Assembly (NCBI GenBank): GCA_039096225.1
Contig: JBBPEB010000025.1
Location: forward strand, 62,001 to 126,000
Source: Blastocystis sp. Blastoise
Taxonomy: Eukaryota; Protista; Bigyra: Opalinata
Direction: 5' to 3'
Length of the DNA stretch: 64,000 nt
The notes under the pieces were generated by a model, which was not told the DNA's origin, did no database searches, and saw only the letters and a program-made list of their open reading frames with translations. Shown here piece after piece: positions 6,456-30,339 of the stretch (position 1 is the first letter of the stretch; each line of letters starts with the position of its first letter). The position numbers and the translations under genes were made by a program.

Positions 6456-6493
6456 TTCTAGAACATTCTAGAACATTCTCGAAACTTCTAGAA
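6456..6493. promoter_or_regulatory. Heat-shock-element array (8 alternating nGAAn units) at the inner edge of the left TIR
   Basis: TTCtaGAAcaTTCtaGAAcaTTCtcGAAacTTCtaGAA. Confidence 0.8.
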
Positions 6494-6538
6494 TAATAAA
6501 TTGTATTATTCGTTTTTTCTATTTTTATACTATATATT

Positions 6539-6706
6539 ATGGATTCTCCAAAGCAATTTGCTCCAGATTATAAAGAAGGTACTTGGAAACCTTATGGAAA
6601 TTTTGAAGTTGATGAATTAAGTGATAGTGATTCTGAAGTGGATACTATTAAAACTGAAAGTGAAGATGATTATGAAGATTATATAAAAAAATTTATTGAT
6701 TTTTAA
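6539..6706 (+). CDS. Small acidic protein (55 aa), not in the ORF track
   Basis: ATG 6539 to TAA 6706, MDSPKQFAPDYKEGTWKPYGNFEVDELSDSDSEVDTIKTESEDDYEDYIKKFIDF. HSE array upstream; TTGTTTAGTT 3' motif at 6734. Confidence 0.65.
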   Translation: MDSPKQFAPDYKEGTWKPYGNFEVDELSDSDSEVDTIKTESEDDYEDYIKKFIDF

Positions 6707-6780
6707 ATTAATTCTTATTAATAACAAAACAAATTGTTTAGTTTTTAAAAATAATAATAAATAAAACAAATTAAAATTAA

Positions 6781-8271
6781 CTAATGTTTTCTACGTTTAT
6801 TTCTTAATTTTTTATTTTTTGAAATACGTCTTTTTCTACGTAATCCATTACCTTCTTCGAGATCATAAAATACCTCACCATCATCTTCATCAAATGATTG
6901 AAATTCATCGTCTTCGTTTTTATTTCTTTTATTATTATTTACAAGAGTGACATTTTCTACTGGATTGGGAATCGGGGCTACAGGTGTAATATTTGGAGTG
7001 AAATTATTCGTGACTGCTTGAGACATTGGAACAGTATCAGGTAAAGGAACAGTAGGATCATTCATAAGAGGAATTAAATTTGGAGGATTTGAATCTTCAA
7101 TAGTAATATTATGAATATTTTCTTGTGTTAGAGTATCAGGAGTAGATGAAGAAGTTGGTATAACATTATTATTTGCTTCTATTGGATTTTTTGTTTGTGG
7201 TATTTCTTCCTCTGGATTCTTACCAAATAAAAATCCAGAAAAAGTATTGTATAAATTATTTACACCACTAACAACAGAGTTTGCAACTTTTTTAACACCA
7301 TTAACAATTGGTGTTCCTACATTTGTTGCAGTATTAACAACTTTATTAACAAATGTAGGGTTTTCTGCATAGGGAATATAATTTTTATGAAATGTTGTTG
7401 CTTGATTATCTAAAGATACCTTTTTGTTAAGTCTTTGTTCTTTAGTATCATTGCCTGACATATGAGCAAATCTAAAATAGTTATCAGCTAATATTTTATT
7501 CTTTTTCTTAGCTTCATTATCATTAGTTAATTTCCAATTATCATATAAATTATTTCTATCACTTACAAGTTTTCCTTTAATATCATTGAATCCTTCTTGT
7601 GGATCAACATTAATATCTCTCCACCAATTCTTGAGATCTTTGAATTTATTTGCACCATAATCAACAGCATTACTTATTCCATGAGTGATGTTATTAATAC
7701 CTCCAGTTAATTTATCAGACACATTGTATACATCACTTACAGTGTGATAAATATTAGAAAATAAATTACCACCTCTAGAATATAAGTAACCATCACGATC
7801 TCTTTTAGTAAAATCAATAGCACTATCAATTGTACGAGGATTTAATAATCTAGAATATTTAGAATAATCAGACATATGATTTTGTTTCATATAAGGTAAG
7901 ACATAATCATGAGCATAAATAAGTTTTCTTGTAAAGTTCTTTGGAATTCTACCATCAGGTAACAACCCAGATCCTTCATCTATTGGTTCAGTTTCTTCTG
8001 ATTCTTCTAATGAACTTTGTATAACATCTTGTCTGGTTTCTGACAAATATGAATAGAATGGATTTGACGTTGCTCTATTAACCATATTACTTTCTATTCG
8101 CTTAACAGCAGCTAAAGAATTAGGAGCAATAGAATAATTAATTGGATGACGTTCTTCTCCATCAGGAATAGATCCTGGAACAATATAATTTCGATATTCA
8201 TGACCAGTAGCACGATGATTTACGCCTACTAATCCTTTATTTGAAACATTTAAACGAGCACTTTGTATCAT
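6781..8271 (-). CDS. Viral protein, putative virion core/structural precursor (496 aa)
   Basis: Long intronless ORF with GxG/GG motifs (EGSGL, RGGNL, EGNGL) and a basic C-terminal tail after the last GxG. Confidence 0.7.
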   Translation of the reverse strand: MIQSARLNVSNKGLVGVNHRATGHEYRNYIVPGSIPDGEERHPINYSIAPNSLAAVKRIESNMVNRATSNPFYSYLSETRQDVIQSSLEESEETEPIDEGSGLLPDGRIPKNFTRKLIYAHDYVLPYMKQNHMSDYSKYSRLLNPRTIDSAIDFTKRDRDGYLYSRGGNLFSNIYHTVSDVYNVSDKLTGGINNITHGISNAVDYGANKFKDLKNWWRDINVDPQEGFNDIKGKLVSDRNNLYDNWKLTNDNEAKKKNKILADNYFRFAHMSGNDTKEQRLNKKVSLDNQATTFHKNYIPYAENPTFVNKVVNTATNVGTPIVNGVKKVANSVVSGVNNLYNTFSGFLFGKNPEEEIPQTKNPIEANNNVIPTSSSTPDTLTQENIHNITIEDSNPPNLIPLMNDPTVPLPDTVPMSQAVTNNFTPNITPVAPIPNPVENVTLVNNNKRNKNEDDEFQSFDEDDGEVFYDLEEGNGLRRKRRISKNKKLRNKRRKH

Positions 8272-8395
8272 TTTAGTTTAATAAAATAATTATGAATTTT
8301 AAAACAAAACAAAAATATATATATATATATTAACAAAATTATAATTTAAATGGCAAACATAATATTGCATAAATAAGTAAATATAATATAGTCTA

Positions 8396-9574
8396 TTAAG
8401 TTTCATCGTTTTGCTGATTTCTTAATCCACTATGTTCTTTATCAGGAAGTGCCTTATTTTCATTAAATAAACCTTCATTATATTTGATAATGAATTCATC
8501 AAGTGGCATTGTTCCGTACGTTTTATATATATAGCCTGACTTTTCAGCTGATCTAACATAAATTTTTTCATCTTTAAGAATGAATACCTGATCTTTAAAC
8601 TCTGGATTATTACATATTACTTTTGAGTTCTTACCATTAACATAAATTGTGAATGGTATACCACTTTCAACAATATCATAATGCATACCTTGTTCATCCA
8701 TCTTATCTTCAAATGCTTTGGCATCTTTTTTACGGTTACTCTCATAATTATCCATCTTAGCGTTTGTTTTATTAGTATCATTTTGACGATTCTTTTCATA
8801 TTTATCCATTCTAGATTGTGTATTGTTATAGTCTTGATGACGATTATTTTCATATTTATCCATCTTTGAATTTGTATTGTTAACATCTTTTTTACGATTA
8901 TTTTCATATGTATCCATTTTAGAGTTTGTAATATTATTATCTGATTGACGATTATTTTCATATGTATCCATCTTTGAGTTCAAATATTCGTTATCTTTAT
9001 GTAGATTTTCATAATTACTAGTCATATTTTGTTTCATTGAAGCTGCTTCAGCATGAATGTCATCATTATTGGTTTTAATTTGATATGAAATATTATTTAA
9101 TTGATCATACATATCTTTTTGAGCATTTGAATAGAATTCATAATTCTCTTTATTCTGTTTATATGCTTCTGAATTCAATCCATTTAAGCCTTTTATTGAA
9201 GATAATAATGTTTCATATTGATAATTATTAGGATTACTAGCATCATACCATATCTTACTTGTAGTAGGTACACCATAATTCGTTTGCCATTGAGATAACA
9301 TTGATGAATATCTTGCAGTATCTCCATTAGCTTTAGCTGAATTCATAGTAGCTATAAACATATCTTCAGGTGATTGACCATGATTTCTTAATGCTTGAAC
9401 TGCCATTGAACTATACATAGATCCTTGTGCATTAGGATCATGTGCTAATGGTTGTACTGGTTGTTCATCTTGACAAATATATGAATTGGGTAACCATGGA
9501 TCCCAAGATTGTTTTTTCTGATTTCTTGATAAAATATCATAGAGAGTTACACTATCTCCTAAATTACTTTGCAT
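8396..9574 (-). CDS. Viral coiled-coil protein with 18-aa tandem repeats (392 aa)
   Basis: About five NSKMD[TK]YENNR repeats with a 54-bp period. Confidence 0.75.
   Translation of the reverse strand: MQSNLGDSVTLYDILSRNQKKQSWDPWLPNSYICQDEQPVQPLAHDPNAQGSMYSSMAVQALRNHGQSPEDMFIATMNSAKANGDTARYSSMLSQWQTNYGVPTTSKIWYDASNPNNYQYETLLSSIKGLNGLNSEAYKQNKENYEFYSNAQKDMYDQLNNISYQIKTNNDDIHAEAASMKQNMTSNYENLHKDNEYLNSKMDTYENNRQSDNNITNSKMDTYENNRKKDVNNTNSKMDKYENNRHQDYNNTQSRMDKYEKNRQNDTNKTNAKMDNYESNRKKDAKAFEDKMDEQGMHYDIVESGIPFTIYVNGKNSKVICNNPEFKDQVFILKDEKIYVRSAEKSGYIYKTYGTMPLDEFIIKYNEGLFNENKALPDKEHSGLRNQQNDET
8695..8985 (-). repeat. 54-bp coding tandem repeat (~5 copies)
   Basis: TCCAT[CT] recurs every 54 bp between ~8697 and ~8970. 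Confidence 0.85.
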
Positions 9575-9650
9575 TATTTATTGTATTAAATTAAAAATAA
9601 TTATATAACAAAACAAATAATTAATTATGAAATAATAAAAATTAAAATAA

Positions 9651-10688
9651 TTAATTTAAATGAAATTTTTTTAAGAAGAATTGAACAAGATTAATAATTA
9701 GATTAGTAGTAGTATCAAAGGATGTAGAGTTGACAAGAGCACCACCACAACGTTCAGCATTCTCTTTTGTAACACCACTTCCACTAGGATTTTTAAAGTA
9801 GTTATCAGCAGTTTCTTTACGTTTCTTATCATCATCAGTAGTAATCATATTATAAGCGAAATCAATAGGGATACCAAGAGAAGGATAATAGTATTTTAAT
9901 GCATTCACTACAATAGGAACAATCGTTTTAATAGTTTTAATAGCAGTATTCGCAATAATAGAATGCTTTTGTTTTGGATCCATAGGATATTCTTTATCGA
10001 TAACGACATTAACAATATCACGTACAGACACATGCTCATCATTTTTAGGTAATCGTTCTTTTATATCTTGTAATTTCTTTCTATTAGACTTTATATTATT
10101 AGAACGAATAGCCTTCTTAGCAATAATTCTTATTTGAGGAGTTACGAATTTACTTGTTTTCTTTTCTTTTTCTCGGTGACTCCCATGTTCTTTACGATGT
10201 TTTTGATGCCTTCTATGTATACCTTGACCAAATATATCATCATAATTTTCATCTTCAAGATTTGCATTATTATAATCTTTATCATCATCAGCCATCATTT
10301 TTCTTGTTATTCTCTTTGGTTGATAAGTATCATCATCGTTATATAATTCATCATCTCTATTAGCATCTTCAATATGTTCTTCAAATTGTCTTTTCTTTTC
10401 TTCTTTTGCTTTTTCTTGACGTTTTTGTTCTTTACGTTTCTGATAATAATTATATCCAGCAAATGCTCCTAATGTACCTAAAATAGGTAATGCAGTATAG
10501 ACACCATTTTTAAAGTCAGCCCAATCAGCATCTCTAGTTTGTTGTCTAACAATTTCTTCAAAACCAGTTCCTCCATATCTTACATAACGTTTATGATAAA
10601 GATCACGTCTATTTGATTTTGGTGGTGATCCTCCAAATAATCGTGGATCACAATTTTGTTTTAAATATCTTTTTGTAATTGAACTCAT
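9651..10688 (-). CDS. Viral protein with one hydrophobic helix and GxG motifs (345 aa)
   Basis: TM-like GVYTALPILGTLGAFAGYNYY followed by a basic coil; motifs FGGS, YGGTG, FGQGI, SGSGV, CGGAL. Confidence 0.7.
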   Translation of the reverse strand: MSSITKRYLKQNCDPRLFGGSPPKSNRRDLYHKRYVRYGGTGFEEIVRQQTRDADWADFKNGVYTALPILGTLGAFAGYNYYQKRKEQKRQEKAKEEKKRQFEEHIEDANRDDELYNDDDTYQPKRITRKMMADDDKDYNNANLEDENYDDIFGQGIHRRHQKHRKEHGSHREKEKKTSKFVTPQIRIIAKKAIRSNNIKSNRKKLQDIKERLPKNDEHVSVRDIVNVVIDKEYPMDPKQKHSIIANTAIKTIKTIVPIVVNALKYYYPSLGIPIDFAYNMITTDDDKKRKETADNYFKNPSGSGVTKENAERCGGALVNSTSFDTTTNLIINLVQFFLKKFHLN

Positions 10689-10741
10689 AACAAAACAATA
10701 AAATAATTATGGTTTATATGACAAATTAAAATATAAAAAAA

Positions 10742-11779
10742 TTAATGAAAAGAAGGATAACCAGAATAATGCTTTTTATTTAAATAAGGATTAAAAATGC
10801 GTCGTTGACTATCTTGTATGATTTGATCTTGTATGATTTGTAAGATGGATTCTTTAGGTTTATCTTTTTCATCTCGTTCAATACCTTTCAATGAGACTTC
10901 TTCTTCAATAGGTAAAAACTTCTTCATTTTCTTTTCATATGTAGATATATGTTCATTAGGACGTTTAATACTACTACCTGATACTTCACCTTGTTCTTCT
11001 CGTTTCTCTTTTTCACTATCTTCTTCTGTCCATTTCCTTTTCTTTACCATCTTATATACATTCTGTTTACTACCACAATCAGGATTAGTCCATATTGTTA
11101 AATCATCACTACCTTGTTTCAACATAAAGAATTGATGTGGATCATTCATTAATTCTTCATCTGTAAGAATTTCATTTAGATTCGATGGCATAATCTTTAA
11201 TTTATCTGGTAAGAATCCAGGATCACGTTTTAAGATTTGACTATTAATAAAGAAATGAGATACTTGACTTAATATAGATTGATTGGTAACATCTGTATGA
11301 CTTTGAAGACATATAATAGCATTCTGTTTATAATGACGACCTTTAGATAATATAGATACAATCAATTGTTTGGTTTGTCTAGATAATGGATAGATATCAT
11401 CCAATACAATAAAATTATGTTCTGGTAATTTATATGTATTGACTAATTCATCAACAGTTTTAATCTTTTTAAATTTATCATCTACAGAATCATACCATTT
11501 ATAATCAATTCCAGCATGTTCACAAATATCTTGAAAGGATGTATAACATTCATTCTTATTGGATGCATCAGGACAAATTACTGTGACTTGTTTATATTTA
11601 TTTTTAAGATCCATAGAACATAAGAGATTCACAGTTAAGAAAGATTTACCTGAGAATGTTCTTGCAATAATCAATATAAATTTTGATTCATATGTTTTAT
11701 GATGTGATTTTCCATATTTAAATTCTAAGACTCCACATCCTTTACGTGTTTCTTTTAATGGATTTATTTTATTCACCAT
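10742..11779 (-). CDS. A32-like (FtsK/HerA family) genome-packaging ATPase
   Basis: Walker A ILIIARTFSGKS, Walker B FIVLDD, and the GRH...ICLQS motif typical of A32 ATPases. Confidence 0.9.
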   Translation of the reverse strand: MVNKINPLKETRKGCGVLEFKYGKSHHKTYESKFILIIARTFSGKSFLTVNLLCSMDLKNKYKQVTVICPDASNKNECYTSFQDICEHAGIDYKWYDSVDDKFKKIKTVDELVNTYKLPEHNFIVLDDIYPLSRQTKQLIVSILSKGRHYKQNAIICLQSHTDVTNQSILSQVSHFFINSQILKRDPGFLPDKLKIMPSNLNEILTDEELMNDPHQFFMLKQGSDDLTIWTNPDCGSKQNVYKMVKKRKWTEEDSEKEKREEQGEVSGSSIKRPNEHISTYEKKMKKFLPIEEEVSLKGIERDEKDKPKESILQIIQDQIIQDSQRRIFNPYLNKKHYSGYPSFH

Positions 11780-11848
11780 TTTTATATGATTTTAATCAAC
11801 AAAACAAAAAATAATTAATGATAAGTTAAAGATAAATAAATGATTTTA

Positions 11849-12514
11849 TTAAGATGCAGTAAAGTATATATAAAGATTTGTATTTGATAAATCAATTGGA
11901 TTATTTAATTGATCATATATTTCCCATTGGATATCTGTATATTTACCATCAATACATGGAATAGATAAATCACTTAAAGCAAATGTATTATCAAATCCTT
12001 GTTTAGCATATAAAGGAATAGAAATTAAATCATTATCTTTATTAATAATATCACAATACACACGTAACATATAGATCTTATACCATGAAATATTATTAGA
12101 TATATATTCATCACTGTAAGTAATTGGTGTATTAAAGTATTCATCATCTAATCCTAAATAATAAAAGAATTCTTTATTACTAAGACTTCTTCTGAATCCA
12201 CTATACGTACCAAATGTTTTTGTTTCTTTATCATAATAGAATGCACTCGTTTGTCCAGATACAGATATTGTCATCTTCTTACCAAGTTCAATTAATTTCT
12301 CAAAGAATTCTTCCAATGAATAGTTACCAGCTGGAAATGTATGTGCTGTTGCATTATTTTCAGTTATTCTGAAAGATGGGATATTAATGATATCACTTGT
12401 ATTCACTAATGTATTGATATGAGTAATATTTTTACCTACTAAATCCAAAGTATAATTGAATTGTTCATGACAAATTTGACTTGTAATTTTACTTAGATGA
12501 GATATTGATGTCAT
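11849..12514 (-). CDS. Minor capsid (penton-like single jelly-roll) protein
   Basis: FPAGNYSLEEF, LRVYCDII and IQWEIYDQLNNPIDL resemble Polinton/PLV mCP motifs; located between the ATPase and MCP. Confidence 0.75.
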   Translation of the reverse strand: MTSISHLSKITSQICHEQFNYTLDLVGKNITHINTLVNTSDIINIPSFRITENNATAHTFPAGNYSLEEFFEKLIELGKKMTISVSGQTSAFYYDKETKTFGTYSGFRRSLSNKEFFYYLGLDDEYFNTPITYSDEYISNNISWYKIYMLRVYCDIINKDNDLISIPLYAKQGFDNTFALSDLSIPCIDGKYTDIQWEIYDQLNNPIDLSNTNLYIYFTAS

Positions 12515-12612
12515 TTTTATTAAATGAATTAATTATGAAATTATAAACAAAACAATATTTTTTTAGAATAATATAAAGTTGATACAAATAATAAAAATAT
12601 CAAATAAATAAA

Positions 12613-13836
12613 TTAATTGGTAGCACCATCTCTAACAAATTTAACAAATATAAAATGAGCATATAAAGTATAAGGACCAGTAACAGTTCCACCAGTATAT
12701 TCAGTTAATAATGAGATATTAACTTCACAACCACTACGCGTATTGACATCAACAACACTTGAAATAGGGAATATATAAATAGGTTGTTCATACCACTTTT
12801 CACCGTTTAAAGGAGATTGAGGATGACTATTACATCTCCAAGTATTATAAAGCATAGCATTAGGAATAATTTGTGATGGATTCGTTGTTTTATACGTAGT
12901 AGGGAAATCCGTCTTTGGTAAGATATTTTGACCACCAATTTGGAATTGACATGATTTTAATAATTCAGTTTTAATAGGAATCATGCTCTTCTCTTGATTT
13001 GTGAAGTATAACATACAATAATCAGGTACGAAAACAACACTTCTATTGGATAAGAATTGTTGTGGAGTTGGTGTACCTGATACTGATGCTTGTGAATAAA
13101 CAGGTGTAGTGAATGCAGATATCTGACAATTATTAGGAATACATTTAATCAAAGCACGTGGATCATTACCAAAATTAATATCATAAATTTGTTGAAGATG
13201 AATATAAACACGATCAAATTTCAATGCAGTGATTACAGTGGTACCGGTAAATAGATTCTTTAAATAATTTGTAACGAATTGCATCTTCAAAGATTTTACT
13301 TTAATAGCACAATCAAATGTACCAAGACCAGTAATAAGAGATAAAGGAATAATAACTTGAGCTTTTTCTTTCATTTCCATTCCAGCAATACTACTCAACG
13401 TGTTATTATATAAGCATTCTGTCATACTATACATAGATTTATCAATTTCATCTTTACTTAATTCTTTAATAGTAACAAATTTTCTTGCTTTACTGGATTC
13501 AATAGAAGATTCAGAATAATTAATAAGAATATCTTGACCCGTAGGAGATACAAACGTAAGATCTGTAGTAATTTTATCAATAATACTATAGATATTAGAA
13601 TGTTGTACAACTGAAGATGTTGAATTTTTGTCTCTAGTACCAGTAATATTGAAATTCAGTTCTAAGAATGAATTACTGAAATCAATATAAGGGCTATCCA
13701 CTGAATTATATAAGAATTCAAATGGATAAGGTTGATTTAATAAATCTTGACTTGTAGAAACTAGAATAGGAATTTGTACAGGTTTAATAGTTTGATTTGC
13801 CTTTGAAGGTAAGAATTGTCTTGGGAATCCTTCCAT
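12613..13836 (-). CDS. Major capsid protein 1 (putative double jelly-roll)
   Basis: YIDFSNSFLELNFNI N-terminal motif, IIPL and VPDYCMLYF; 407 aa, beta-rich, in a capsid-module context. Confidence 0.75.
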   Translation of the reverse strand: MEGFPRQFLPSKANQTIKPVQIPILVSTSQDLLNQPYPFEFLYNSVDSPYIDFSNSFLELNFNITGTRDKNSTSSVVQHSNIYSIIDKITTDLTFVSPTGQDILINYSESSIESSKARKFVTIKELSKDEIDKSMYSMTECLYNNTLSSIAGMEMKEKAQVIIPLSLITGLGTFDCAIKVKSLKMQFVTNYLKNLFTGTTVITALKFDRVYIHLQQIYDINFGNDPRALIKCIPNNCQISAFTTPVYSQASVSGTPTPQQFLSNRSVVFVPDYCMLYFTNQEKSMIPIKTELLKSCQFQIGGQNILPKTDFPTTYKTTNPSQIIPNAMLYNTWRCNSHPQSPLNGEKWYEQPIYIFPISSVVDVNTRSGCEVNISLLTEYTGGTVTGPYTLYAHFIFVKFVRDGATN

Positions 13837-18084: not shown

Positions 18085-18507
18085 ATGGAGCCTAAATCTG
18101 TATCTGAATCCTTACATTCTTTATCAAGTACAAGTTCAACAAGTTCAGATAGTTCAACAACAACCACATTATCCGAAGAAGAAATAGAAAAGAAAAATAC
18201 TTTATTAGAATTTATTATAAAAGCTATAAAATGTTTATTTGAGAAATCAACTGAATTCTTTCAATTAATTGTTAAAAATATAGATATTCATTGTAATTGT
18301 TGTAATCCACAAACAAAGAAAGTCTATTATAAGACAATGAAAATACAACAAACTATTATTGAAGAAGAAGTCAAACATATATCAGAAGTCTTGAATGAAT
18401 TAGAAGAAATTGATTCTAATCAAAATGAATCAATACAAGAATTAGCTGTTCAATTAATGAAATTAAATATAAGTGTTGATTCTATTGTTCAATCTCTTCA
18501 TTTATAA
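18085..18507 (+). CDS. Hypothetical viral protein (140 aa; Ser-rich N-terminus, coiled-coil C-terminus)
   Basis: ATG-initiated ORF followed by the element's 3' motif at 18542. Confidence 0.7.
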   Translation: MEPKSVSESLHSLSSTSSTSSDSSTTTTLSEEEIEKKNTLLEFIIKAIKCLFEKSTEFFQLIVKNIDIHCNCCNPQTKKVYYKTMKIQQTIIEEEVKHISEVLNELEEIDSNQNESIQELAVQLMKLNISVDSIVQSLHL

Positions 18508-20424: not shown

Positions 20425-23400
20425 TTAATTTGGTATAGCATATAAAGTATTATCTATTAAAATTCGTTTTGTTGATGACGTATTATGATATTGATCTTCA
20501 CTATAAACAATTTCTTCTTTCTTAGATAAACAATTGGATAAACAGAATAAATCTGTATCTACACATTCATTATAAGTATTATCAATCATTAAACCACAAA
20601 TACCAATAGCATTCCCTCCCTTATAGAAATTTGAAGTATGTTTTCTATGAATATTCACAATATCTATAGAATTAAATGTATCTTTACTACTTAAACAACC
20701 AAATAAAGCATTTGTAAATTTATCTAAATCTTTCTTAATCGTAAATTGATTATTATTATTCACTTTCTTATAACTATTAAAAATATCTTCAATAGTAACT
20801 ACATTCAAATAATAAGGATCTATAGTAATATGGTTATCAACAAAAGATTTCAAATCATATCCTTCTGTACTACGATCAAAGAATCGTTTCTTACATTCAC
20901 TTATATGATATTCATTATCTAATTCATGCATATCTAATTGCATACTAGAATAGAAATAATTACTTACTAGATAACTAAAGATAATTGAACGATTCTGATA
21001 GAATTTATCAGATAAAGTATAATCCATTTCATAATGATTGGGTTTCAATCTCTTTTCTACTGTCTGTTTACGTTTCGGTAAATTATGATCTACATAATCT
21101 TCATATAAATTAGCATTACCAGGAGGGAAATAACGACAACATGATGGTAAGAAACAAACTCTTCTTTCAATAGGACCAGCATTCACAGCAGTAGGTTGGA
21201 TATTACTTGTCATAAATAAAGTACCCGTGAAATGAACTTTTGTAAATATATTACTGAATAATTTACGAGCACTAGCACCTTCTTTCTTTTCTGCTATTTC
21301 TTTAAAGACTTTAGAAGAGAATGGATTAAATGTTTTCTTTCTACCAGTAACATCTTCTTCTATTAATTCATTCATATAATACATAGTCTTATTAGACATA
21401 TCTACAATCTTAGGAGCTATAGATGTTTCTTCTAAATTATCTGGATTTACTATAATACATTGATTACTACCTACAATACGAGAAATTAAATCAGTTGTTA
21501 TTGTTTTACCATTACTACCTGTACTACCATATAATATATAAGAAACTGTTTTCTGAGTATTGACATAGAAAGCAGTGGTTAAGATACGTAACATAATACT
21601 TTCATATTTCTTATCGAATTCACAATATCTTGCAATATGTTGTTCAAATAATTGGATAATATCTTTCTGTTCATTATTAATATTCCAACTTACATTAAAT
21701 TCAGTATCAATTAATAAATCTTCAAACACCATATCTTCTTTATGATATGGTTGGATATAATATTGTCTAGGATCTTCTTCTGTTGATTCTTTTGGATATA
21801 AATAGCCAAGTTGTGTATAGATAACACGTTCTTTATGAACCATATACGTATCTAAATATTCTTTATAAGATTTACCATAAGTCTTCAAATAACGATTCAA
21901 CCATTCTTTATAATGATATTCATTAGTAACAGAAGCAGACATTATTTTATCAACTATTTTTTGATGTTGTTCATTCTCTTTGGAATATAATCTTGATAAT
22001 TTGAATTTCTCTACAATCGATTTCATAAATGTAGTTATTTTGGTTTCAAAGAAATTAATATCATAATTATTCTTACAACGTCTTAAGATATTATATTCAT
22101 CAAATGTATATAAGATAAAATTATCTTTATCTAATATAATAGAAACAATTTCATTAAATTCTAATAATTGAAATAACATAACTAATGTTTGTGAATCTAC
22201 AAGATTAAAGGATTGAATACATTCTAAAATAGACATAAATATGAAATCATTATCATCATCTTTATTAAATAATTTATTATCCATTAATATCTTCAAAATA
22301 TAATTATTCGATAAATGAGTAGGATCAACTTGTATATGATTCCATGTAGATTCAATTACATCATCACTTCGATCATGACCATAACGTAATGAATAATTTT
22401 TAAATAATTCTAATCCTCTTGTTGTATTACAAATCTGTTTTGCTGCACAACATAATTTATACCAAGTATTATGAGATTCAAAATAATTCATATCTTCAAT
22501 AGAACCAATCAATAATAAATATCGTTCTAATAAAGCTTCTTTAGATGCTGTAGTATCCAATATAGTATCTGTAGAAATCAACATAGGAATATCTTTAATA
22601 TCTTGTATAGAACATAATATAGTACGTGAACAATTATTTAATCTTGCATAATAACGTTTATAACGTGAATATTGTTTTAATTTATAAAAAATAATAGGAT
22701 TAATAATATCACTTATAATATCATCTTCATTCTTATAATTCAATAATGTTTTGAAATAATAATGTTCATCGATTTCATCATCTATTTTCTTCCATGTTTT
22801 ATTGGTATATTCTTCATATAATTTATAAGTAGATGGAGAATTATCTTTACTACAACCAAGAAACATACAACCATTATTCTTTCTGGGTTTACCAATAACA
22901 TTATAATCAATGAATTCTTTTATATCTAAATTATATGTTTTACATAAATCAACCAATTTGGTATTCAGAATCATACTATTATATAAGAAAAATAAATAAT
23001 CACCATTTACAAACCAATTTGTATATATATGAATTCCCCATGAATAATGTATTTCATTATGAACTGTCTTCTTATTCACTTCTTTCTTTGTATACACAAG
23101 CGAAATAAATTCTTGATTATAATAATGAATACAATGATTACATATTTCTTCTATAAATTCATGAATAAAAGAATCTGTTAGAAAAGAAAAATCATTTGAT
23201 ATTTGGTGATAATCTAAATCAAACCATAATCTTCTATAATTAGTTGATGTATTACAAGGAGTACAATCAATATAATGTAATAATTCTTTTGGATTTTGAT
23301 AATTAGTAAACAGACTTTTATAAAATGGTAATGGATTTGGTATAATAATTTCACTATGATTATCTTTTGAATTATCATGATTAAAGGAACCAAAAGTATA

Positions 23401-23427
23401 AACAAAATGAATTTGTGAATTTTCCAT
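20425..23427 (-). CDS. AEP primase-polymerase + PriCT-2 + SF3 (D5-like) helicase
   Basis: LWFDLDY, WGIHIY, PriCT-2-like NTWYKL..GLELFKNYS, Walker A YGSTGSNGKT, Walker B YYMNE, motif C FMTSN, Arg finger IERRV. Likely ATG at 23427 (the track start at 23475 is TTG). Confidence 0.9.
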   Translation of the reverse strand: MENSQIHFVYTFGSFNHDNSKDNHSEIIIPNPLPFYKSLFTNYQNPKELLHYIDCTPCNTSTNYRRLWFDLDYHQISNDFSFLTDSFIHEFIEEICNHCIHYYNQEFISLVYTKKEVNKKTVHNEIHYSWGIHIYTNWFVNGDYLFFLYNSMILNTKLVDLCKTYNLDIKEFIDYNVIGKPRKNNGCMFLGCSKDNSPSTYKLYEEYTNKTWKKIDDEIDEHYYFKTLLNYKNEDDIISDIINPIIFYKLKQYSRYKRYYARLNNCSRTILCSIQDIKDIPMLISTDTILDTTASKEALLERYLLLIGSIEDMNYFESHNTWYKLCCAAKQICNTTRGLELFKNYSLRYGHDRSDDVIESTWNHIQVDPTHLSNNYILKILMDNKLFNKDDDNDFIFMSILECIQSFNLVDSQTLVMLFQLLEFNEIVSIILDKDNFILYTFDEYNILRRCKNNYDINFFETKITTFMKSIVEKFKLSRLYSKENEQHQKIVDKIMSASVTNEYHYKEWLNRYLKTYGKSYKEYLDTYMVHKERVIYTQLGYLYPKESTEEDPRQYYIQPYHKEDMVFEDLLIDTEFNVSWNINNEQKDIIQLFEQHIARYCEFDKKYESIMLRILTTAFYVNTQKTVSYILYGSTGSNGKTITTDLISRIVGSNQCIIVNPDNLEETSIAPKIVDMSNKTMYYMNELIEEDVTGRKKTFNPFSSKVFKEIAEKKEGASARKLFSNIFTKVHFTGTLFMTSNIQPTAVNAGPIERRVCFLPSCCRYFPPGNANLYEDYVDHNLPKRKQTVEKRLKPNHYEMDYTLSDKFYQNRSIIFSYLVSNYFYSSMQLDMHELDNEYHISECKKRFFDRSTEGYDLKSFVDNHITIDPYYLNVVTIEDIFNSYKKVNNNNQFTIKKDLDKFTNALFGCLSSKDTFNSIDIVNIHRKHTSNFYKGGNAIGICGLMIDNTYNECVDTDLFCLSNCLSKKEEIVYSEDQYHNTSSTKRILIDNTLYAIPN

Positions 23428-23513
23428 GATTATTTGACTTATAAATAATGAAAATAAATATGGCATAAAATTCAAAACAAATAATATATTAAAGATTCTA
23501 GAAGTCAGTTTTA

Positions 23514-23633
23514 GAAGCTTCTAGAACCTTCTAGAACATTCAAGAACATTCTAGAACATTCTATAATAGTAAATATTACTTTATATTTTTAAATGTTCTA
23601 GAACCTTCGAGAACCTTCGAGAACCTTCTAGAA
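23514..23633. promoter_or_regulatory. Two HSE arrays (10 units at 23514-23561; 8 units at 23596-23633) upstream of the primase-helicase
   Basis: Perfect 5-bp alternation of GAA and TTC. Confidence 0.8.
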
Positions 23634-23743: not shown

Positions 23744-24367
23744 TTAAATTTCAATTGGTTCTTGACTATTAATATATGTACATGAATGAGGCCATCCATT
23801 CTTATCATATAAAATACCATCCCAGAAATACATTTGTTTTGAAGGATCTCTTTTAATCTTGTTAATACTCTTAGCATGAACAACTTCATAAGAATAAACT
23901 TTACCTTTTTCATCATAAAGGAATCCATCTTCCATATGGAATTTCATAATATCAAAATCATCATCTTTAGAATTCGAATGTTCTTTAGAATCTTCAGAAC
24001 ATAAAATAGTAGTTCTATCACTTTCTAAAAGATCTTCAGTATTGATAATATCTTGAATATCTTGTTCTTCGTTAAGTTGTTGAGTATAAATATCAGCAGC
24101 GAATTCTTCATAATCTTCAAGACCTTTAATAACCGCGTTTATACGTTTTAAAGCTGATCTATAGTTTTCGACTTCGAAAGAAGCAAGACGTTCTTTAGAT
24201 TTTGCAATACCCAATAGATTCTTTTCTCTATTCAATTGAGACTGATGTAAATCAATATCACGAAGAACATTCTTATGAACTTCAACAGCCTTCTTAGAAT
24301 TCTTAAGAAGTTCCATACGAACAGTTTGAAGACATTTACGGGAATCAGCAGAAAGATTAAATTGCAT
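23744..24367 (-). CDS. Hypothetical viral coiled-coil protein (~207 aa)
   Basis: First in-frame ATG at 24367 (MQFNLS); 3' motif at 23675. Confidence 0.7.
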   Translation of the reverse strand: MQFNLSADSRKCLQTVRMELLKNSKKAVEVHKNVLRDIDLHQSQLNREKNLLGIAKSKERLASFEVENYRSALKRINAVIKGLEDYEEFAADIYTQQLNEEQDIQDIINTEDLLESDRTTILCSEDSKEHSNSKDDDFDIMKFHMEDGFLYDEKGKVYSYEVVHAKSINKIKRDPSKQMYFWDGILYDKNGWPHSCTYINSQEPIEI

Positions 24368-24478
24368 TATAATCGCGAATATCGTTACAGAGAGAAAATT
24401 TGTATTTATCAAAATGAAATAAATAATACATTTAAATGGAATATTAAATATTCTAGGAGACAGTGTAGAATCTCTATG

Positions 24479-24496
24479 GAATGTTCTAGAAGGTTC
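24479..24496. promoter_or_regulatory. HSE (4 units)
   Basis: GAAtgTTCtaGAAggTTC. Confidence 0.65.
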
Positions 24497-24501
24497 ATTT
24501 G

Positions 24502-24649
24502 ATTGGCTAATTTTGTCGACTTAGCATTTTTTATTTGTGTTTCGATGACGAGTATAGTCGGCATCTGTAATTTGATTGGATAAAAAAATTAGTAAAACAC
24601 AATTAGACGATGACGACGATGTGTCATACGAAATAAGTTATTTTATTGG
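24502..24649. promoter_or_regulatory. Three inverted CCAAT boxes interleaved with TGACG half-sites in a divergent promoter
   Basis: ATTGG at 24502, 24575 and 24645; GATGACGA containing TGACG at 24546 and 24611. Confidence 0.45.
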
Positions 24650-24765
24650 CTTATTTTCCAGCTGGAAGCAATAGGCTTTTGTTAGCAACTGAAATGAAGA
24701 ACTGTACACTAAAAATAGTATATTTAATATATTGTATAAAAATACTTTTGAAGGTTTAAATAATC

Positions 24766-25293
24766 ATGGAAATTCCTGATAGTCTTTCTGCCAGTTTATC
24801 CCCTTTCGGTCAAGCCATGATATCCCCCTTGTTGAATCCATTTGAAAATAGTGTTTCTGAAAATCCTATGGCTTTACCCAATGATAATGATTTCTGTTTT
24901 AATTCGCGTGACGAAATCATGTTTGAAGATCCACCTCAAGAAATTCATCCAATCAATGATGTTTACGTATCTAAAAATCCAGATAGATATCATTCGGTTA
25001 ACAATCAACCAATACAATTTCAAGATCAAGTAAATACAAATCCTGATAAGCAAGCATTATTATTTACAAATGAGGAGTTAACAAATATATCCAGTCAATT
25101 CGAATCTTTATTTCAAACTATTGAAACAGCTGATAATATATTAAATGGTATTTATTGTACTGTTGATCATTTAAAAACAAAGATTGAAAGTCAGAAACAA
25201 GATTTGAAACAGATTCATGATGATTCTAAAGAAATTGTTTCATTATTATCCGAATATTCTATTCCTTCTATGTCTGAAATATTTGATCATTAA
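24766..25293 (+). CDS. Hypothetical viral protein (175 aa; acidic/Pro-rich N-terminus, coiled-coil C-terminus)
   Basis: ATG-initiated ORF; 3' motif at 25316. Confidence 0.75.
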   Translation: MEIPDSLSASLSPFGQAMISPLLNPFENSVSENPMALPNDNDFCFNSRDEIMFEDPPQEIHPINDVYVSKNPDRYHSVNNQPIQFQDQVNTNPDKQALLFTNEELTNISSQFESLFQTIETADNILNGIYCTVDHLKTKIESQKQDLKQIHDDSKEIVSLLSEYSIPSMSEIFDH

Positions 25294-25488
25294 TTTATTT
25301 ATTTAATTAATTATTTTGTTTTGTTTATTTTTTTTTAATTTAATTTCACAAAGTTTAAATGGAAAATAGAATAGTTTCAAATAGAATTCTTGAATGGTCT
25401 AATGGATCTATTAAAGAAATATGTAACTACAGTATCATGGTTCGATTCCGTTAAAATGTTTCCATTAGATTATTCAAGTGTTCTTTTT

Positions 25489-25536
25489 TTCTAGAACCTT
25501 CTCGAACATTCTAGAACCTTCTAGAACCTTCTCGAA
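25489..25536. promoter_or_regulatory. HSE array (10 units) upstream of the SSB-like gene
   Basis: TTCtaGAAccTTCtcGAAcaTTCtaGAAccTTCtaGAAccTTCtcGAA. Confidence 0.8.
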
Positions 25537-25612
25537 AATTGATTCATTTGAAAAGAATATCGTAAAATATTAGTATTAAAATACTTATATTTTTACTAAA
25601 TACTTAACTAAA

Positions 25613-26206
25613 ATGTCTTCAACTGAATTTAAGAAACCTGCTATTCTTGATACTTCTAACTTTAATTTACAATGGGATGACACCAAAGAAAATGCTGTTC
25701 TTTTAAATAATAATCATCGTGTATGTATTTCTACTGATGCTACACCATGTTTATTTGGTTATATTGTTACACGTGATAAATGGACTTTATTAACAATTGA
25801 AGATGATAATCAAGTATTCTTAACTGCTTATAAAGAACTTTATCGTAAATTATGTGAATTATGTCCTGATGGTGATATTGTTAATTTTGTACGTATGGAT
25901 AATGGTAAATATAAGATTACAATTAAAGTACCTATTAATGCATCGAAGAATGTTACTATTGATATCACTGATAAAAGAGATAAGAAGATTAATATCGGTA
26001 AAGATCCTAAGTTAACTTACGAAGAAATACGTGAAAAGTATATTCCACCAAATACGTTATGTAAAGTATTATTTACAATACATGGTATTCATCGTTATAA
26101 TAACAAGTATTATATTGGTTTATATGCTCGTTCTATTAAAGTCATCGATAAATCTACGAAGAATACTAATAGTAATGATACTATTATTGATTTAACTAAT
26201 TTATAA
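25613..26206 (+). CDS. Putative single-stranded DNA-binding protein (NCLDV / T7 gp2.5-like OB fold)
   Basis: C-terminal IPPNTLCKVLFTIHGIHRYNNKYYIGLYARSIKV pattern resembles the NCLDV SSB beta strands; 197 aa. Confidence 0.55.
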   Translation: MSSTEFKKPAILDTSNFNLQWDDTKENAVLLNNNHRVCISTDATPCLFGYIVTRDKWTLLTIEDDNQVFLTAYKELYRKLCELCPDGDIVNFVRMDNGKYKITIKVPINASKNVTIDITDKRDKKINIGKDPKLTYEEIREKYIPPNTLCKVLFTIHGIHRYNNKYYIGLYARSIKVIDKSTKNTNSNDTIIDLTNL

Positions 26207-26280
26207 ATTTTTAATGTTAAATTTATTTTTTATTAATATATTTGTTTTGTTTATAAATAATTTTATAATTGAAATAAAAA

Positions 26281-27909
26281 ATGCAAAGTTGTATCTTAGG
26301 AATGCCAAGTCCTGGTACTTTTGGTATGAATTTAATTTCAACTGGAAAAGAATATAGGCGATATAATACACAACCATTACATAAAATGGATCAATATAAT
26401 CCAATATTTCATGAAATAGGTCCAAATTCATCTATGCCTGTGTCTACTTTAGAAAGTAAAGAAATACATGATGGCAAAGAAGATGATTATGTAGATCGTT
26501 CTAAAACATTTGGTAAAGATGCTGTTCCACAAGGAAATGGTGCTTTAATTCGTGCTAGAGCAGCAGGTAAAGGTGTAATGAAAGCAGCTGGTCCAGAAGA
26601 AGATAAAATAGATGGTGAAGATCGTCAATATAAAGTATTAAATCCATGTAAACCAAGACGTAAATCTGGTAGAGGAATTATTCCAAATAAATCAGAAATC
26701 AATAAATTAGAGAATAATCAAGGTTCTGGTATTGGTGATGCAATTAAAAATAAAGTAAAAGATATGTATCAACGAAATGTATTAGATATAAGAGATGCTA
26801 TTGTAGATAAAAAAGCTAATAGAAAAGCTCGTGATGCATTAGCTATTTTAGCTCAATATGTTGGTGATGGTCATCATGATCTTGATGATGAATTCAAAAG
26901 ATTCTATGAACATAAAATAAAACGTGGTGGAAAGATTCCTATATCTGTTGCTTCAGCAATTATGAATGCAATTAAAAATAAGAAAATGATTAAGAATCCA
27001 AAATTAAGAAGAATGTTAAGACCTTCAATTATACCAAAATATATAGATTTAGATTCAGCTCAAAGTGGTGATGGTATATTAAGAGTTAAAAGAGGTGGTG
27101 GATTCTGGGATGGAGTTATGAACTATGCACCAGCTCTTTTAGGTGTAGTTGATAAAGGTATGGATTCTTTTGCTAAAGGTAGAAAAGCTTATTATGATAC
27201 ACATTTGGCACAACAGTCAAGTGAATTAAATGATATGGAATTTGAAATGGAAAAATTAAAACGTCAACAAGCATTAAATGAAATGAAAAAACAAATAGGT
27301 TCAGGAAATACTATAAATAAGATGTTTGAAGGATATTATGATGTAGCTGATGAAATGCAAGATGCTATTGATGAAGATGATAGATTACATCCACAACCCG
27401 TTGTTCAACCTCCACCACCTCCACAACAACAAGTTGCTAGACATCCTCAACCTCAACCTCCTCAACCTTATAAACCAATGTCTCGTGATGAACAAAGTTA
27501 TCCTTATAAGATTTATGGTTTCCCTCAAAATGATAAAGAGAAAGTCGATAGAAAATGGAAAGAAGATGAAAGGGATAAACGAATAGCTGCAAGAAGAGCT
27601 AAACGTAGAGGTTATGGTGGTCGAGTTAAATTAAGTAAAGAAGAATTCTTAGAACGAATGAGAAGAGGAAAAGAAGCTAAAAAGAAAAAAGGTGGTGATT
27701 TACCTCCATTAGTAACAGCTTATACAGATTTTGTAATACCTGCACAAGTAGCTCAAAGGAAACGTAAAGTAGCTAAGAATGATTTAAAACAATTACAAAT
27801 TATAAAACAGAAGATGGATAATAATGAAATATTAGATAGAGGTGAGCAAATGTTTTGGAAAGAAAAGAAGTATATGTTATCAAAAAACTCAGGGGAGGGG
27901 ATCTGGTAA
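26281..27909 (+). CDS. Basic GxG-rich virion core precursor (542 aa)
   Basis: About 11 GxG/GG motifs (QGNGA, AGKGV, SGRGI, QGSGI, RGGKI, SGDGI, RGGGF, IGSGN, YGGRV, KGGDL, SGEGI); overlaps the protease ORF. Confidence 0.7.
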   Translation: MQSCILGMPSPGTFGMNLISTGKEYRRYNTQPLHKMDQYNPIFHEIGPNSSMPVSTLESKEIHDGKEDDYVDRSKTFGKDAVPQGNGALIRARAAGKGVMKAAGPEEDKIDGEDRQYKVLNPCKPRRKSGRGIIPNKSEINKLENNQGSGIGDAIKNKVKDMYQRNVLDIRDAIVDKKANRKARDALAILAQYVGDGHHDLDDEFKRFYEHKIKRGGKIPISVASAIMNAIKNKKMIKNPKLRRMLRPSIIPKYIDLDSAQSGDGILRVKRGGGFWDGVMNYAPALLGVVDKGMDSFAKGRKAYYDTHLAQQSSELNDMEFEMEKLKRQQALNEMKKQIGSGNTINKMFEGYYDVADEMQDAIDEDDRLHPQPVVQPPPPPQQQVARHPQPQPPQPYKPMSRDEQSYPYKIYGFPQNDKEKVDRKWKEDERDKRIAARRAKRRGYGGRVKLSKEEFLERMRRGKEAKKKKGGDLPPLVTAYTDFVIPAQVAQRKRKVAKNDLKQLQIIKQKMDNNEILDRGEQMFWKEKKYMLSKNSGEGIW

Positions 27910-28001
27910 AGAGTAAAGATGAAAAACTTATTCAAAATTCAATGAATTGTGATAATCCTATTATATCTGATAAAACTCGTCATGTTACTCCTAGATCCCC
28001 T
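27882..28001 (+). other. Predicted -1 programmed ribosomal frameshift signal
   Basis: A_AAA_AAC at 27882-27888 in the correct phase; 7-nt spacer; stem AGGGGATCTGG (27896-27906) / CTAGATCCCCT (27991-28001), extended by GAGTAA/TTACTC. Confidence 0.75.
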
Positions 28002-28475
28002 GATAATTTCAAACAAACTCTATCTCAATATTGTAATATACCCAATTCTTTAATATCTCAATTATATAATTATGCTTATTTAAATAAACCTACCTCTTCT
28101 GTTGCTTGTGATCGTGCTGAAAATGTTATGAAACAATTAAATAAAACGAATTCTCAATCTTATAATTATTATAATAGTTATGATGATTTTGAACAAAATA
28201 TAGATCAAGATCAAACTAAATTTAATATGATCTTCCATGAAAGTCCTAGTGATCCTTATAATGGTCATTTTGAAGCTGTTATTTATAATGGTAATAAAAA
28301 TATAGAACACTATTCATCATTAGGAAATAAACCTACTTTTTCAAAATCATTTATTCAAAATCATAATATTCAATATAATCCTATTCAACACCAAAAAACT
28401 ACAAGTAATGCAAATGGTTGCTTTTATTATTCTTTACTTTATTTACTTTCTAATGGAAATCTTATGCCTTGTTAA
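27888..28475 (+). CDS. Adenain/Ulp1-like cysteine protease (in the -1 frame of the upstream ORF; first own ATG at 27942)
   Basis: NGHFEAV...IEHYSSLG...QYNPIQHQKTTSNANGCFYY matches the Polinton protease pattern GxHW..YFDSFG..YN..QxQ..S..CG.YC. Confidence 0.8.
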   Translation, partial: LRGGDLVKSKDEKLIQNSMNCDNPIISDKTRHVTPRSPDNFKQTLSQYCNIPNSLISQLYNYAYLNKPTSSVACDRAENVMKQLNKTNSQSYNYYNSYDDFEQNIDQDQTKFNMIFHESPSDPYNGHFEAVIYNGNKNIEHYSSLGNKPTFSKSFIQNHNIQYNPIQHQKTTSNANGCFYYSLLYLLSNGNLMPC

Positions 28476-28479
28476 AACC

Positions 28480-28497
28480 TTCTAGAATATTCTAGAA
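28480..28497. promoter_or_regulatory. HSE (4 units)
   Basis: TTCtaGAAtaTTCtaGAA. Confidence 0.65.
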
Positions 28498-28561
28498 TCT
28501 CTAATTTATTATATTAATATTTTGTATAATTAATTTGTTTTGTTTAATATTTAATACTATA

Positions 28562-28717
28562 ATGACAAAGAAACGATTTGGCAATTACTACTTAGATCGT
28601 AGTGCAGAAATTTTAGAGAATGTAAATGAAATACTGTCAGTTATTGAAATTGTTCTTATTATTATATATATTTTACTTTACTTTTATATGTCCAAGAAAC
28701 ATTCTAGAACATTCTAG
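28562..28717 (+). CDS. Small single-TM protein (51 aa)
   Basis: ATG at 28562; hydrophobic ILSVIEIVLIIIYILLYFYM; HSE upstream and 3' motif downstream. Confidence 0.5.
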   Translation: MTKKRFGNYYLDRSAEILENVNEILSVIEIVLIIIYILLYFYMSKKHSRTF

Positions 28718-28724
28718 AACATTC
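28702..28724. promoter_or_regulatory. HSE (5 units)
   Basis: TTCtaGAAcaTTCtaGAAcaTTC. Confidence 0.7.
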
Positions 28725-28819
28725 ATTTTGAACTGGCTCTATTTGTAGAATCTTTAATTTATTATATTAGTATTTTATATAATTAATTTGTTTTGTTTAA
28801 TCATTGGTTAATTTAAATA

Positions 28820-29194
28820 ATGAACAAGAAATATCTTAGTTATTCTTATTTTTGTCGTGTGATGAAGAATCTAAAAGAAGAAGGAATTAAATCTAAAAAG
28901 AATGAAATAGCGAATCTATTAGAACAATTTTTAAATAACAATAACAACAAAAATCTTAGTGATTTACAACTAAGTTATTGTAGAAATATGCTACTTTATA
29001 TAGATGATCCTGTGATTCATCAACGTCTTGAAATGCTATTGGATAAACAATATATGAAGAATGAGAATCAATATCAAGATGATAAGAATCTTATTCAACC
29101 CAATAATATGTTTATGCCTACTATGAAAAGTAATCAACAACAAAATCAATATCAAAATAATAATAATACTCTATCTTTCTTACCTTTTAATTAA
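28820..29194 (+). CDS. Hypothetical viral protein (124 aa; N/Q-rich tail)
   Basis: ATG-initiated ORF; variant 3' motif TTGTTTAGTT at 29218. Confidence 0.65.
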   Translation: MNKKYLSYSYFCRVMKNLKEEGIKSKKNEIANLLEQFLNNNNNKNLSDLQLSYCRNMLLYIDDPVIHQRLEMLLDKQYMKNENQYQDDKNLIQPNNMFMPTMKSNQQQNQYQNNNNTLSFLPFN

Positions 29195-29267
29195 TTTTTA
29201 TATCCTTTTATTACTAGTTGTTTAGTTATATTCAAATTTAAAACAAAACAAGCATGAAAACATAAAA

Positions 29268-30203
29268 TTATTCAATTAATTTTTTAAATAAATTATTATT
29301 TTCTAAAGATACATAAGAATTAATATGTGTATAATCATTATGACATAAAGCAGAAGCAGAATTTTCTATATCTTGGAATGTATTGGTTGTAGTTGTAGCA
29401 TATAATTTTCTTAATGCATTAATGGTCAATTTTGGATGGATTTGTTTTAAATGCTTATTCACAAACCAATCAAATGCTTTAGTAGTAAATCCAGTTCGTA
29501 CAGAAGATTCAAATATAAATTTACGATTTGGATTTCTTTTTAAGAGTAATTCTAGATCTTCAATCAATTCTTTTGGTGCATCTAATTGAATTGTAGAGTA
29601 TTTACCAGCAGTTTTATAATCATTTAATAGAATAGAACCAGTATGTTTCTCTTTATCATAAACAATATAATTCTTATGAATAGCTGGATCAATAGTATCT
29701 TCTGGAGTTAGAATGAATAATTGAGCATAATCAGCACGAGCAGGAGGAAGATAGGAGTAAAAATCTAATATTAATCGTAATGGATTATAATTTTCTAATT
29801 TATCGTGATATTCATGTAAATATGGAGTCGTAATACCATCTTTAATAAGATCTTGAATTAAAGTACGTTTCTTATTATCCAGATATTTTTCATACATTGC
29901 ATTAATAATCACATAAAATTCACACCATTTATTTAAAATACCTTCTTTATTTAATGAAGAAACATTACGTATAATAAATAATATCAATTCACATAACGAT
30001 TTCATTGGACTAATTTTGATTTTACGTTCATTTACCATATAATCCATGAATGAATAAGGATTCTTTAAGAATTCTGAGAACTTTTTAAATGGTAATGGGA
30101 AAATATATAAATTGAAATAATTGGTTAAACGTTTTTTCCAAATATCAGAATAATTTGAATTTTGTATAACCAAAAGATACTTGTCATAATTTGTATTTTT
30201 CAT
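29268..30203 (-). CDS. Tyrosine recombinase 2 (311 aa)
   Basis: LPPARADY (R), DYKTAGKY (K), NALRKLYAT (R) and LCHNDYTHINSY (H-x8-Y). Confidence 0.85.
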   Translation of the reverse strand: MKNTNYDKYLLVIQNSNYSDIWKKRLTNYFNLYIFPLPFKKFSEFLKNPYSFMDYMVNERKIKISPMKSLCELILFIIRNVSSLNKEGILNKWCEFYVIINAMYEKYLDNKKRTLIQDLIKDGITTPYLHEYHDKLENYNPLRLILDFYSYLPPARADYAQLFILTPEDTIDPAIHKNYIVYDKEKHTGSILLNDYKTAGKYSTIQLDAPKELIEDLELLLKRNPNRKFIFESSVRTGFTTKAFDWFVNKHLKQIHPKLTINALRKLYATTTTNTFQDIENSASALCHNDYTHINSYVSLENNNLFKKLIE

Positions 30204-30291
30204 TGTTTTTCTTAAGTAGAATCTTTAAAACTTCTATTTTCAAAAGAATAATACATAAGAAAATCAAAATAAAATATCTAAGATTCTCATG

Positions 30292-30339
30292 TTCTCGAAT
30301 GTTCTAGAAGTTTCGAGAATGTTCTAGAATGTTCTAGAA
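30292..30339. promoter_or_regulatory. HSE array (10 units) upstream of tyrosine recombinase 2, at the inner edge of the right TIR
   Basis: TTCtcGAAtgTTCtaGAAgtTTCgaGAAtgTTCtaGAAtgTTCtaGAA. Confidence 0.8.

Follow-up and report, generated by a model that had tools for sequence, protein, structure and literature searches.

A 64,000-nt stretch of the genome of Blastocystis sp. Blastoise (contig JBBPEB010000025.1, hereafter the window) carries an element of 25,336 nt (5730–31065) with 20 open reading frames (ORFs), which is supported as a Polinton-like virus (PLV) integrated in the Blastocystis genome as a provirus. Arrays of alternating nGAAn units, the form of a eukaryotic heat shock element (HSE), lie in front of a subset of its genes. 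Generally, such arrays are recognized by heat shock factor (HSF), and on balance the arrays are best read as sites for the host HSF, through which host stress would switch on the excision and replication genes of the provirus without a helper virus.

The arrays are real and far beyond chance. The whole window was scanned for perfectly alternating GAA/TTC units at a 5-nt period, and the eight arrays named in a first-pass annotation of this DNA were recovered with exactly the coordinates and unit numbers claimed (Table 1); an HSE takes at least three alternating nGAAn units, and these arrays have 4–10 perfect ones. The sole extra match, three units at 47223, falls in host coding DNA and is a chance match, while the concern that such arrays could be common at random in host DNA found no echo in the 38.7 kb of host DNA in the window, which holds 0 arrays of at least four units. 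Markov nulls of orders 1, 3 and 5, trained on the element itself and run 300 times each, gave 0.02–0.09 arrays of at least four units and 0 of at least eight units per element length. In addition, TTCTAGAAnnTTCTAGAA with at most two mismatches was matched 21 times, always inside the arrays, compared with 0.11 matches expected, and an unbiased scan of the element for period-10 tracts returned the arrays and no other tract. The independent sites number 6–7 rather than eight, because 6456–6493 and 30302–30339 are two copies of one site that forms the inner end of the 764-nt terminal inverted repeat (TIR), and a duplicated promoter cassette is headed by the array at 28480 in one copy and by that at 28702 in the other. 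Among the seven non-redundant arrays, 0 of 105 GAA/TTC core positions deviate as against 13 of 56 spacer positions, with slippage making these events not fully independent. An A before GAA is a known preference of HSF, and A directly precedes GAA (AGAAn) in 41 of the 51 non-redundant units.

The arrays are unevenly placed among the genes, largely as had been proposed. Seven of the 20 ORFs have an array 45–111 nt upstream of the ATG (claimed as ~45–110 nt for seven genes), a promoter-proximal position typical of HSEs, where the gap runs from the array to the next same-strand ATG and transcription starts are not mapped. The primase-helicase is preceded by two arrays (10 + 8 units); its gap of 84 nt refers to the ATG at 23429, which is also the start annotated in sister copies, and would be 47 nt if the first in-frame ATG were used. 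The ATPase and both capsid genes have no array nearby, nor have the genes of the putative core proteins and of the putative protease, nor the 598-aa recombinase-like gene, which agrees with the earlier statement on the capsid, ATPase, core and recombinase 1 genes. An array lies within 120 nt of 7 of 10 presumed non-virion genes, as against none of the ten genes presumed to act in the virion or its assembly (Fisher p 0.003), the two classes being partly inferred. The wider claim that arrays mark the non-structural genes needs narrowing, since the 598-aa and 140-aa ORFs, presumably non-structural too, are without one, and the array closest to the 175-aa ORF is 269 nt away. As well, the divergent promoter of the 207-aa and 175-aa ORFs (24500–24700) contains three ATTGG (CCAAT-box-like) words beside its 4-unit array.

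HSF trimers bind alternating nGAAn units cooperatively, and the host HSF is predicted, with considerable confidence, to bind the arrays. A published supplementary InterPro table lists the HSF-type DNA-binding domain IPR000232 at 2–3 per genome in all eight Blastocystis genomes tabulated (PMC12129017), and the viral ORFs that were scanned gave no match to the Pfam HSF domain. HSF PITG_04701 of the stramenopile Phytophthora infestans has been reported to bind TTCTAGAA in electrophoretic mobility shift assays (EMSA), with three units bound best (PMC11267843). Moreover, the motif recurs in unrelated viruses. [quoted passage not shown] A six-unit scan of IMG/VR added a Rep at 2 of 68 loci. Of the 13 placeable arrays, ten precede the Rep start by 36–134 nt, across seven lineages whose Reps are 23–55% identical; the remaining three lie elsewhere, and at one further locus the Rep start is cut off. 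A TATA box follows the array in one CRESS lineage. Non-coding arrays 20–150 nt before an ORF account for 18 of the 69 in-phase loci versus 4 of the 80 out-of-phase loci. The same motif before unrelated Rep genes points to a conserved host factor. Thus, the earlier proposal of the host HSF as a switch is backed in its binding part, by the Blastocystis HSF domains, the stramenopile EMSA, the invariant cores and the CRESS Rep promoters, while an SOS-like switch, with heat or proteotoxic stress as the trigger, is predicted with slightly more confidence than doubt. CRESS loci with 4–6-unit arrays at the stated distance from Rep are L065 (998–1136), L050 (1484–1610), L081, L091, L098, L112, L117, L123, L134 and L137.

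A second motif concerns the other end of the genes. TGTTT[T/A]GTT occurs 17–84 nt after the stop codon, on the coding strand, in 17 of the 20 ORFs, and exact TGTTTTGTT is present 16 times in the element and once in the host DNA of the window. A role of TGTTTTGTT as a late promoter, considered for its position 26–41 nt before many ATGs, was set aside because it is found between convergent genes and missing between divergent ones, although a dual role is possible. The motif TGTTT[T/A]GTT is likely a 3' processing signal, being close to the downstream gene element TGTTTGTT, which directs 3' cleavage in human-associated Blastocystis and for which a study saw no enrichment in isolates from tortoises (PMC12129017). 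No DNA or RNA polymerase was matched among the element ORFs in Pfam and PHROGs, and the lack of an RNA polymerase, together with a Blastocystis-like 3' signal, suggests that the virus is transcribed by host Pol II in the nucleus.

Beyond the presence and placement of the arrays, the steps of the proposed mechanism are inferred. Stress-activated host HSF trimers would load cooperatively on the 8–10-unit arrays and turn on an early module comprising the primase-helicase, the putative single-stranded DNA-binding protein (SSB), recombinase 2 and the small ORFs. Recombinase 2 might then excise the genome at the TIR ends, while the terminal hairpins might prime synthesis by the viral primase-helicase and a host polymerase. 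The array-less virion genes would follow later, under a viral factor or with rising copy number.

Several findings weigh against a stress switch. As many as 50 of the 68 six-unit IMG/VR matches are enclosed in long reading frames, for the most part on phage-like contigs, so arrays of this kind exist where no HSF does; at L016, L039 and other six-unit loci, the array-bearing phage-like genes presumably resemble replication initiators, and the arrays are possibly origin iterons. Tracts of eight units are common in metagenomes (at least 120 stretches) and also arise as 10-bp minisatellites, and a heat-shock protein was found in 1 of 39 ORFs neighbouring them, by a method that intron-rich genes escape. 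Single-stranded DNA viruses that bear the motif lack an integrase, and most of the ten P. infestans HSFs resolved are reported to prefer ungapped motifs, with expression varying with development and life stage (PMC11267843). Because non-integrating viruses share the motif and oomycete HSFs are often developmental, it need not mean latency control, and the arrays may simply be early promoters of high strength, not switches of latency. A host HSF-family protein might then serve as a constitutive, infection-induced or developmental activator (e.g., in encystation), or even as a repressor; all the evidence for HSF binding applies equally here, as does the motif before Rep in integrase-less viruses, and Blastocystis has only 2–3 HSF domains. 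We regard this alternative as rather unlikely, in that arrays of 8–10 units are well suited to the cooperative binding of stress-activated trimers, HSF1-type factors have been reported to favour long HSEs (PMC12047821), and some 20 intact copies in one genome suggest that the early genes are normally quiet.

Binding by a viral protein, be it an autoregulatory early-gene factor or one acting at recombinase accessory sites or replication iterons, is harder to accept and appears improbable. One array is the exact inner TIR boundary, no function is known for several of the small viral ORFs, and similar arrays occur in the phage-like genes just described; against this, the arrays occupy six internal promoter positions at least 700 nt from the hairpin ends, and no DNA-binding domain was detected in the small viral ORFs by searches of low sensitivity. 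Replication iterons form a cluster at one origin and usually change with their initiator, whereas the arrays here are spread over six promoter regions and the same core precedes unrelated Rep genes. Dependence on a helper giant virus, with the arrays as a helper-type promoter or incidental, is very doubtful. Mavirus and Tetraselmis PLVs are woken in this way (10.1101/2025.10.09.676808), the element has no DNA polymerase, and its virion genes carry no array; however, the motif is a eukaryotic HSE on early rather than late genes, the 3' signal is similar to the downstream element of Blastocystis, and the egoviruses, known giant viruses of the gut, are described without gene flux with Blastocystis in the available part of a preprint (10.1101/2024.03.23.586382). 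Neutral 10-bp minisatellites produced by slippage would also look like HSEs, as would any tandem TTCnnGAAnn repeat, and such tracts are common in metagenomes, but with invariant cores beside variable spacers, every tract at promoter distance and none in the host DNA of the window, this origin is hardly credible.

The first-pass annotation had called the element a eukaryotic provirus, and this is borne out by its TIRs, its capsid of the jelly-roll type, its many copies and its position inside a host gene. Its length within 15–30 kb, TIRs, integration in a protist genome, double jelly-roll major capsid protein (MCP) and packaging ATPase are those of an endogenous PLV, while the pPolB and rve integrase of Polintons/Mavericks gave no match among the 20 element ORFs in Pfam or the 18 compared with PHROGs. 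The AlphaFold model of MCP1 matches the Sputnik, PBCV-1 and PRD1 capsids (Foldseek, E 1.5e-10). The two TIRs are 100% complementary, and each end has a GC-rich terminal palindrome with a predicted hairpin; the DNA fold of 5722–5862 reaches -34.2 kcal/mol (z -6.5), which none of 200 shuffles equalled. The terminal palindrome at 5730–5856 and its mirror at the right end are candidate replication primers or resolution sites. The TIR interior (5880–6440) contains repeated AAAGTGATCAAG, AATCACGGGAAT and CCAT-type boxes, and CCCGTG/CACGGG words are also frequent in an AT-rich host gene. The element is inserted into a hAT transposase, with DUF4371 to its left and the hAT dimerisation region to its right (Pfam), and 2–4 nt (TA to TAAT) are common to both element ends. 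The hAT reading frame stays open as far as each junction, suggesting that the insertion is recent. The surrounding hAT-like DNA transposon has its ORF at 2744–5548 + 31066–31524, with ends seemingly near 10 and 33745, and from ~34500 to 64000 the window is filled by a host gene of very large size, rich in introns, that bears SPRY-like repeats and long AT microsatellites.

The virus family is widespread, with relatives in many metagenome assemblies, and a description was not found in the literature searched. The capsid, helicase and recombinase are near-identical to Blastocystis sp. Blastoise proteins annotated as hypothetical, in ~19–21 copies, and at least two further divergent capsid families (P0077, P0079 and P0080, 47–51% identity) are present in the same organism. 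Most of the others among the 87 capsid homologues are unnamed ENA or Logan proteins of 56–63% identity, and some of the contigs with capsid homologues, at 26–27.5 kb, have the size of the whole element. The relatives comprise P0002–P0087, P0099, P0113–P0118 and P0146, and one SSB-like relative occurs on 176 contigs. Scans with the helicase and the capsid alignment found no related loci in viral, metagenome or prokaryote genome contigs, and the helicase had no tblastn match among phages. The capsid tree, built by a quick method, covers sequences of this family only, with no reference PLV capsids.

The features of the element are collected in Table 1. Among the array-bearing genes, the positions of the SSB-like and recombinase genes relative to the arrays stood, while both names remain tentative. 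The 197-aa protein has homologues at 22–31% identity in metagenome assemblies; its single-sequence model has a pLDDT of 35 and gave no significant fold or profile match. The 311-aa protein has a weak Pfam Phage_integrase match (E 0.084) and no match in the PDB, its RADY, YKT, RKLY and H..H..Y motifs are kept in a 42%-identical relative, and it matches the 598-aa protein over 20 residues only. The N-terminal extensions of metagenomic recombinase homologues were uninformative on array-coded peptides. The 221-aa and 812-aa candidates for minor capsid (penton) proteins had no family match, and the 207-aa protein had no usable ESM Atlas match. A likeness of the coiled coil of the 175-aa ORF to HSBP1 was considered and gained no support from Pfam.

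Table 1. Features of the Polinton-like provirus, in window coordinates (gaps are those to the ATG).
Feature	Position	Strand	Remarks
Left TIR	5730..6493	+	764 nt; inner end is the 8-unit array; 100% complementary to 30302-31065
Terminal palindrome	5730..5856	.	GC-rich, predicted hairpin; mirrored at right end
nGAAn array, 8 units	6456..6493	.	45 nt upstream of 55-aa ORF
55-aa acidic ORF	6539..6706	+	No Pfam match
496-aa putative core protein	6781..8271	-	G-x-G motifs, basic tail; no array
392-aa ORF	8396..9574	-	In structural block; no array
345-aa basic putative core protein	9651..10688	-	No array
P-loop packaging ATPase	10742..11779	-	PHROG 2666, E 1.2e-10; weak FtsK Pfam, E 0.049; no array
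221-aa ORF, possible minor capsid protein	11849..12514	-	Adjoins capsid genes (position only); no family match; no array
Major capsid protein 1, 407 aa, double jelly-roll	12613..13836	-	AlphaFold model, Foldseek; no array
Major capsid protein paralogue 2, 497 aa	14013..15506	-	hhalign to MCP1 alignment, probability 100, E 6.9e-41; no array
812-aa ORF, possible fibre or penton-associated protein	15577..18015	+	No array
140-aa ORF	18085..18507	+	No array
598-aa putative tyrosine recombinase 1	18575..20371	+	R, K, xxRH, H..Y motifs by eye; no array
1000-aa primase-helicase (D5/P4-like)	20425..23429	-	PHROG 1156, E 2.5e-9; TIGR01613, E 1.1e-8
nGAAn array, 10 units	23514..23561	.	Proximal to primase-helicase, 84 nt
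nGAAn array, 8 units	23596..23633	.	Second array before primase-helicase
207-aa ORF	23744..24367	-	111 nt downstream of 4-unit array
nGAAn array, 4 units	24479..24496	.	Between divergent 207-aa and 175-aa ORFs
175-aa acidic, coiled-coil-like ORF	24766..25293	+	269 nt from 4-unit array
nGAAn array, 10 units	25489..25536	.	76 nt upstream of 197-aa ORF
197-aa conserved protein, possible OB-fold ssDNA-binding protein (unconfirmed)	25613..26206	+	
542-aa basic, glycine-motif-rich putative core protein	26281..27909	+	No proximal array
177-aa putative maturation cysteine protease	27942..28475	+	His ... Gln ... Cys by eye; no family match; no array
nGAAn array, 4 units	28480..28497	.	64 nt upstream of 51-aa ORF; cassette copy 1
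51-aa ORF, hydrophobic stretch	28562..28717	+	3' end overlaps next array
nGAAn array, 5 units	28702..28724	.	95 nt upstream of 124-aa ORF; cassette copy 2
124-aa ORF	28820..29194	+	
311-aa putative tyrosine recombinase 2	29268..30203	-	88 nt downstream of 10-unit array
nGAAn array, 10 units	30292..30339	.	8 units are the inner end of the right TIR
Right TIR	30302..31065	-	

The published triggers found for PLVs and virophages are giant viruses only, and protist genomes hold thousands of intact Polinton-like proviruses. If the stress reading is true, a host trigger would be named for a Polinton-like provirus, which would wake without a helper virus. The family is one of DNA viruses of Blastocystis, the commonest eukaryote of the gut, and none such was found described in the searches made. 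Moreover, the arrays might provide strong promoters, possibly inducible ones, ready for use in a protist for which genetic tools are few. A broader reading, in which this is an undescribed, truly temperate PLV family with the host HSF as its induction signal, fever, gut inflammation, oxygen or the warming of a basking reptile would release virus from the gut protist, and HSE early promoters are a general, overlooked strategy in small nuclear DNA viruses, including many CRESS viruses, is put forward tentatively, as a possibility that we would not yet favour. In a search of public sequencing runs, one run contained 0.34 of the query words, and no RNA run was among the matches listed. Literature searches found no report of an HSF-driven Polinton-like virus, with subscription journals and bioRxiv supplements lying outside the search, and no paper joining 'Polinton-like' and 'heat shock element'; those for endogenous viral or Polinton elements, DNA viruses or capsids of Blastocystis returned only unrelated work, and 'heat shock element' was not found in CRESS-virus literature among the matches listed.

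The capture of HSF by mobile DNA is already known from ONSEN, from herpesvirus promoters and from DIRS-1 of Dictyostelium, a protist's tyrosine-recombinase element whose inverted terminal repeats carry a heat-shock promoter; DIRS-1 is a retrotransposon without a capsid, unlike the element here. Endogenous PLVs with a tyrosine recombinase, including those of Halocafeteria, are likewise described as 15–30 kb long, with TIRs, a double jelly-roll capsid, a packaging ATPase and a primase-helicase without pPolB (Bellas 2023, PMC10120064; 10.64898/2026.07.28.741278), and terminal palindromes have been proposed as replication primers in the pPolB-less Halocafeteria PLVs (10.64898/2026.07.28.741278). 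The element here differs from them by its HSE arrays and by having two paralogous capsid genes and two genes of the recombinase-like kind; the word 'heat' is absent from the available text of both papers, and Blastocystis from that of Bellas 2023. Provirophages (mavirus and EMALEs) and Tetraselmis PLVs are also integrated small jelly-roll viruses in which a promoter motif predicts the waker, but the motif there is a late promoter of giant-virus type, and it takes a giant virus, not host stress, to reactivate them (10.1101/2025.10.09.676808). A latent giant virus of Chlamydomonas carries host-like latency genes, and HSF is not mentioned in the available part of the preprint. ONSEN of Arabidopsis is alike in that a host HSF binds a heat-responsive element in mobile DNA, and it has been reported to form extrachromosomal copies under heat (PMC3907296); it is an LTR retrotransposon with one promoter, whereas a capsid-coding dsDNA virus here has arrays at several early promoters. 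In the latent herpesviruses KSHV (ORF50) and EBV (BZLF1 and Qp), host HSFs have been reported to bind nGAAn units at the genes that start the lytic cycle (PMC12047821). Those sites have 2–3 units at 1–2 promoters in an animal host, whereas here 4–10 perfect units are spread over a whole early module.

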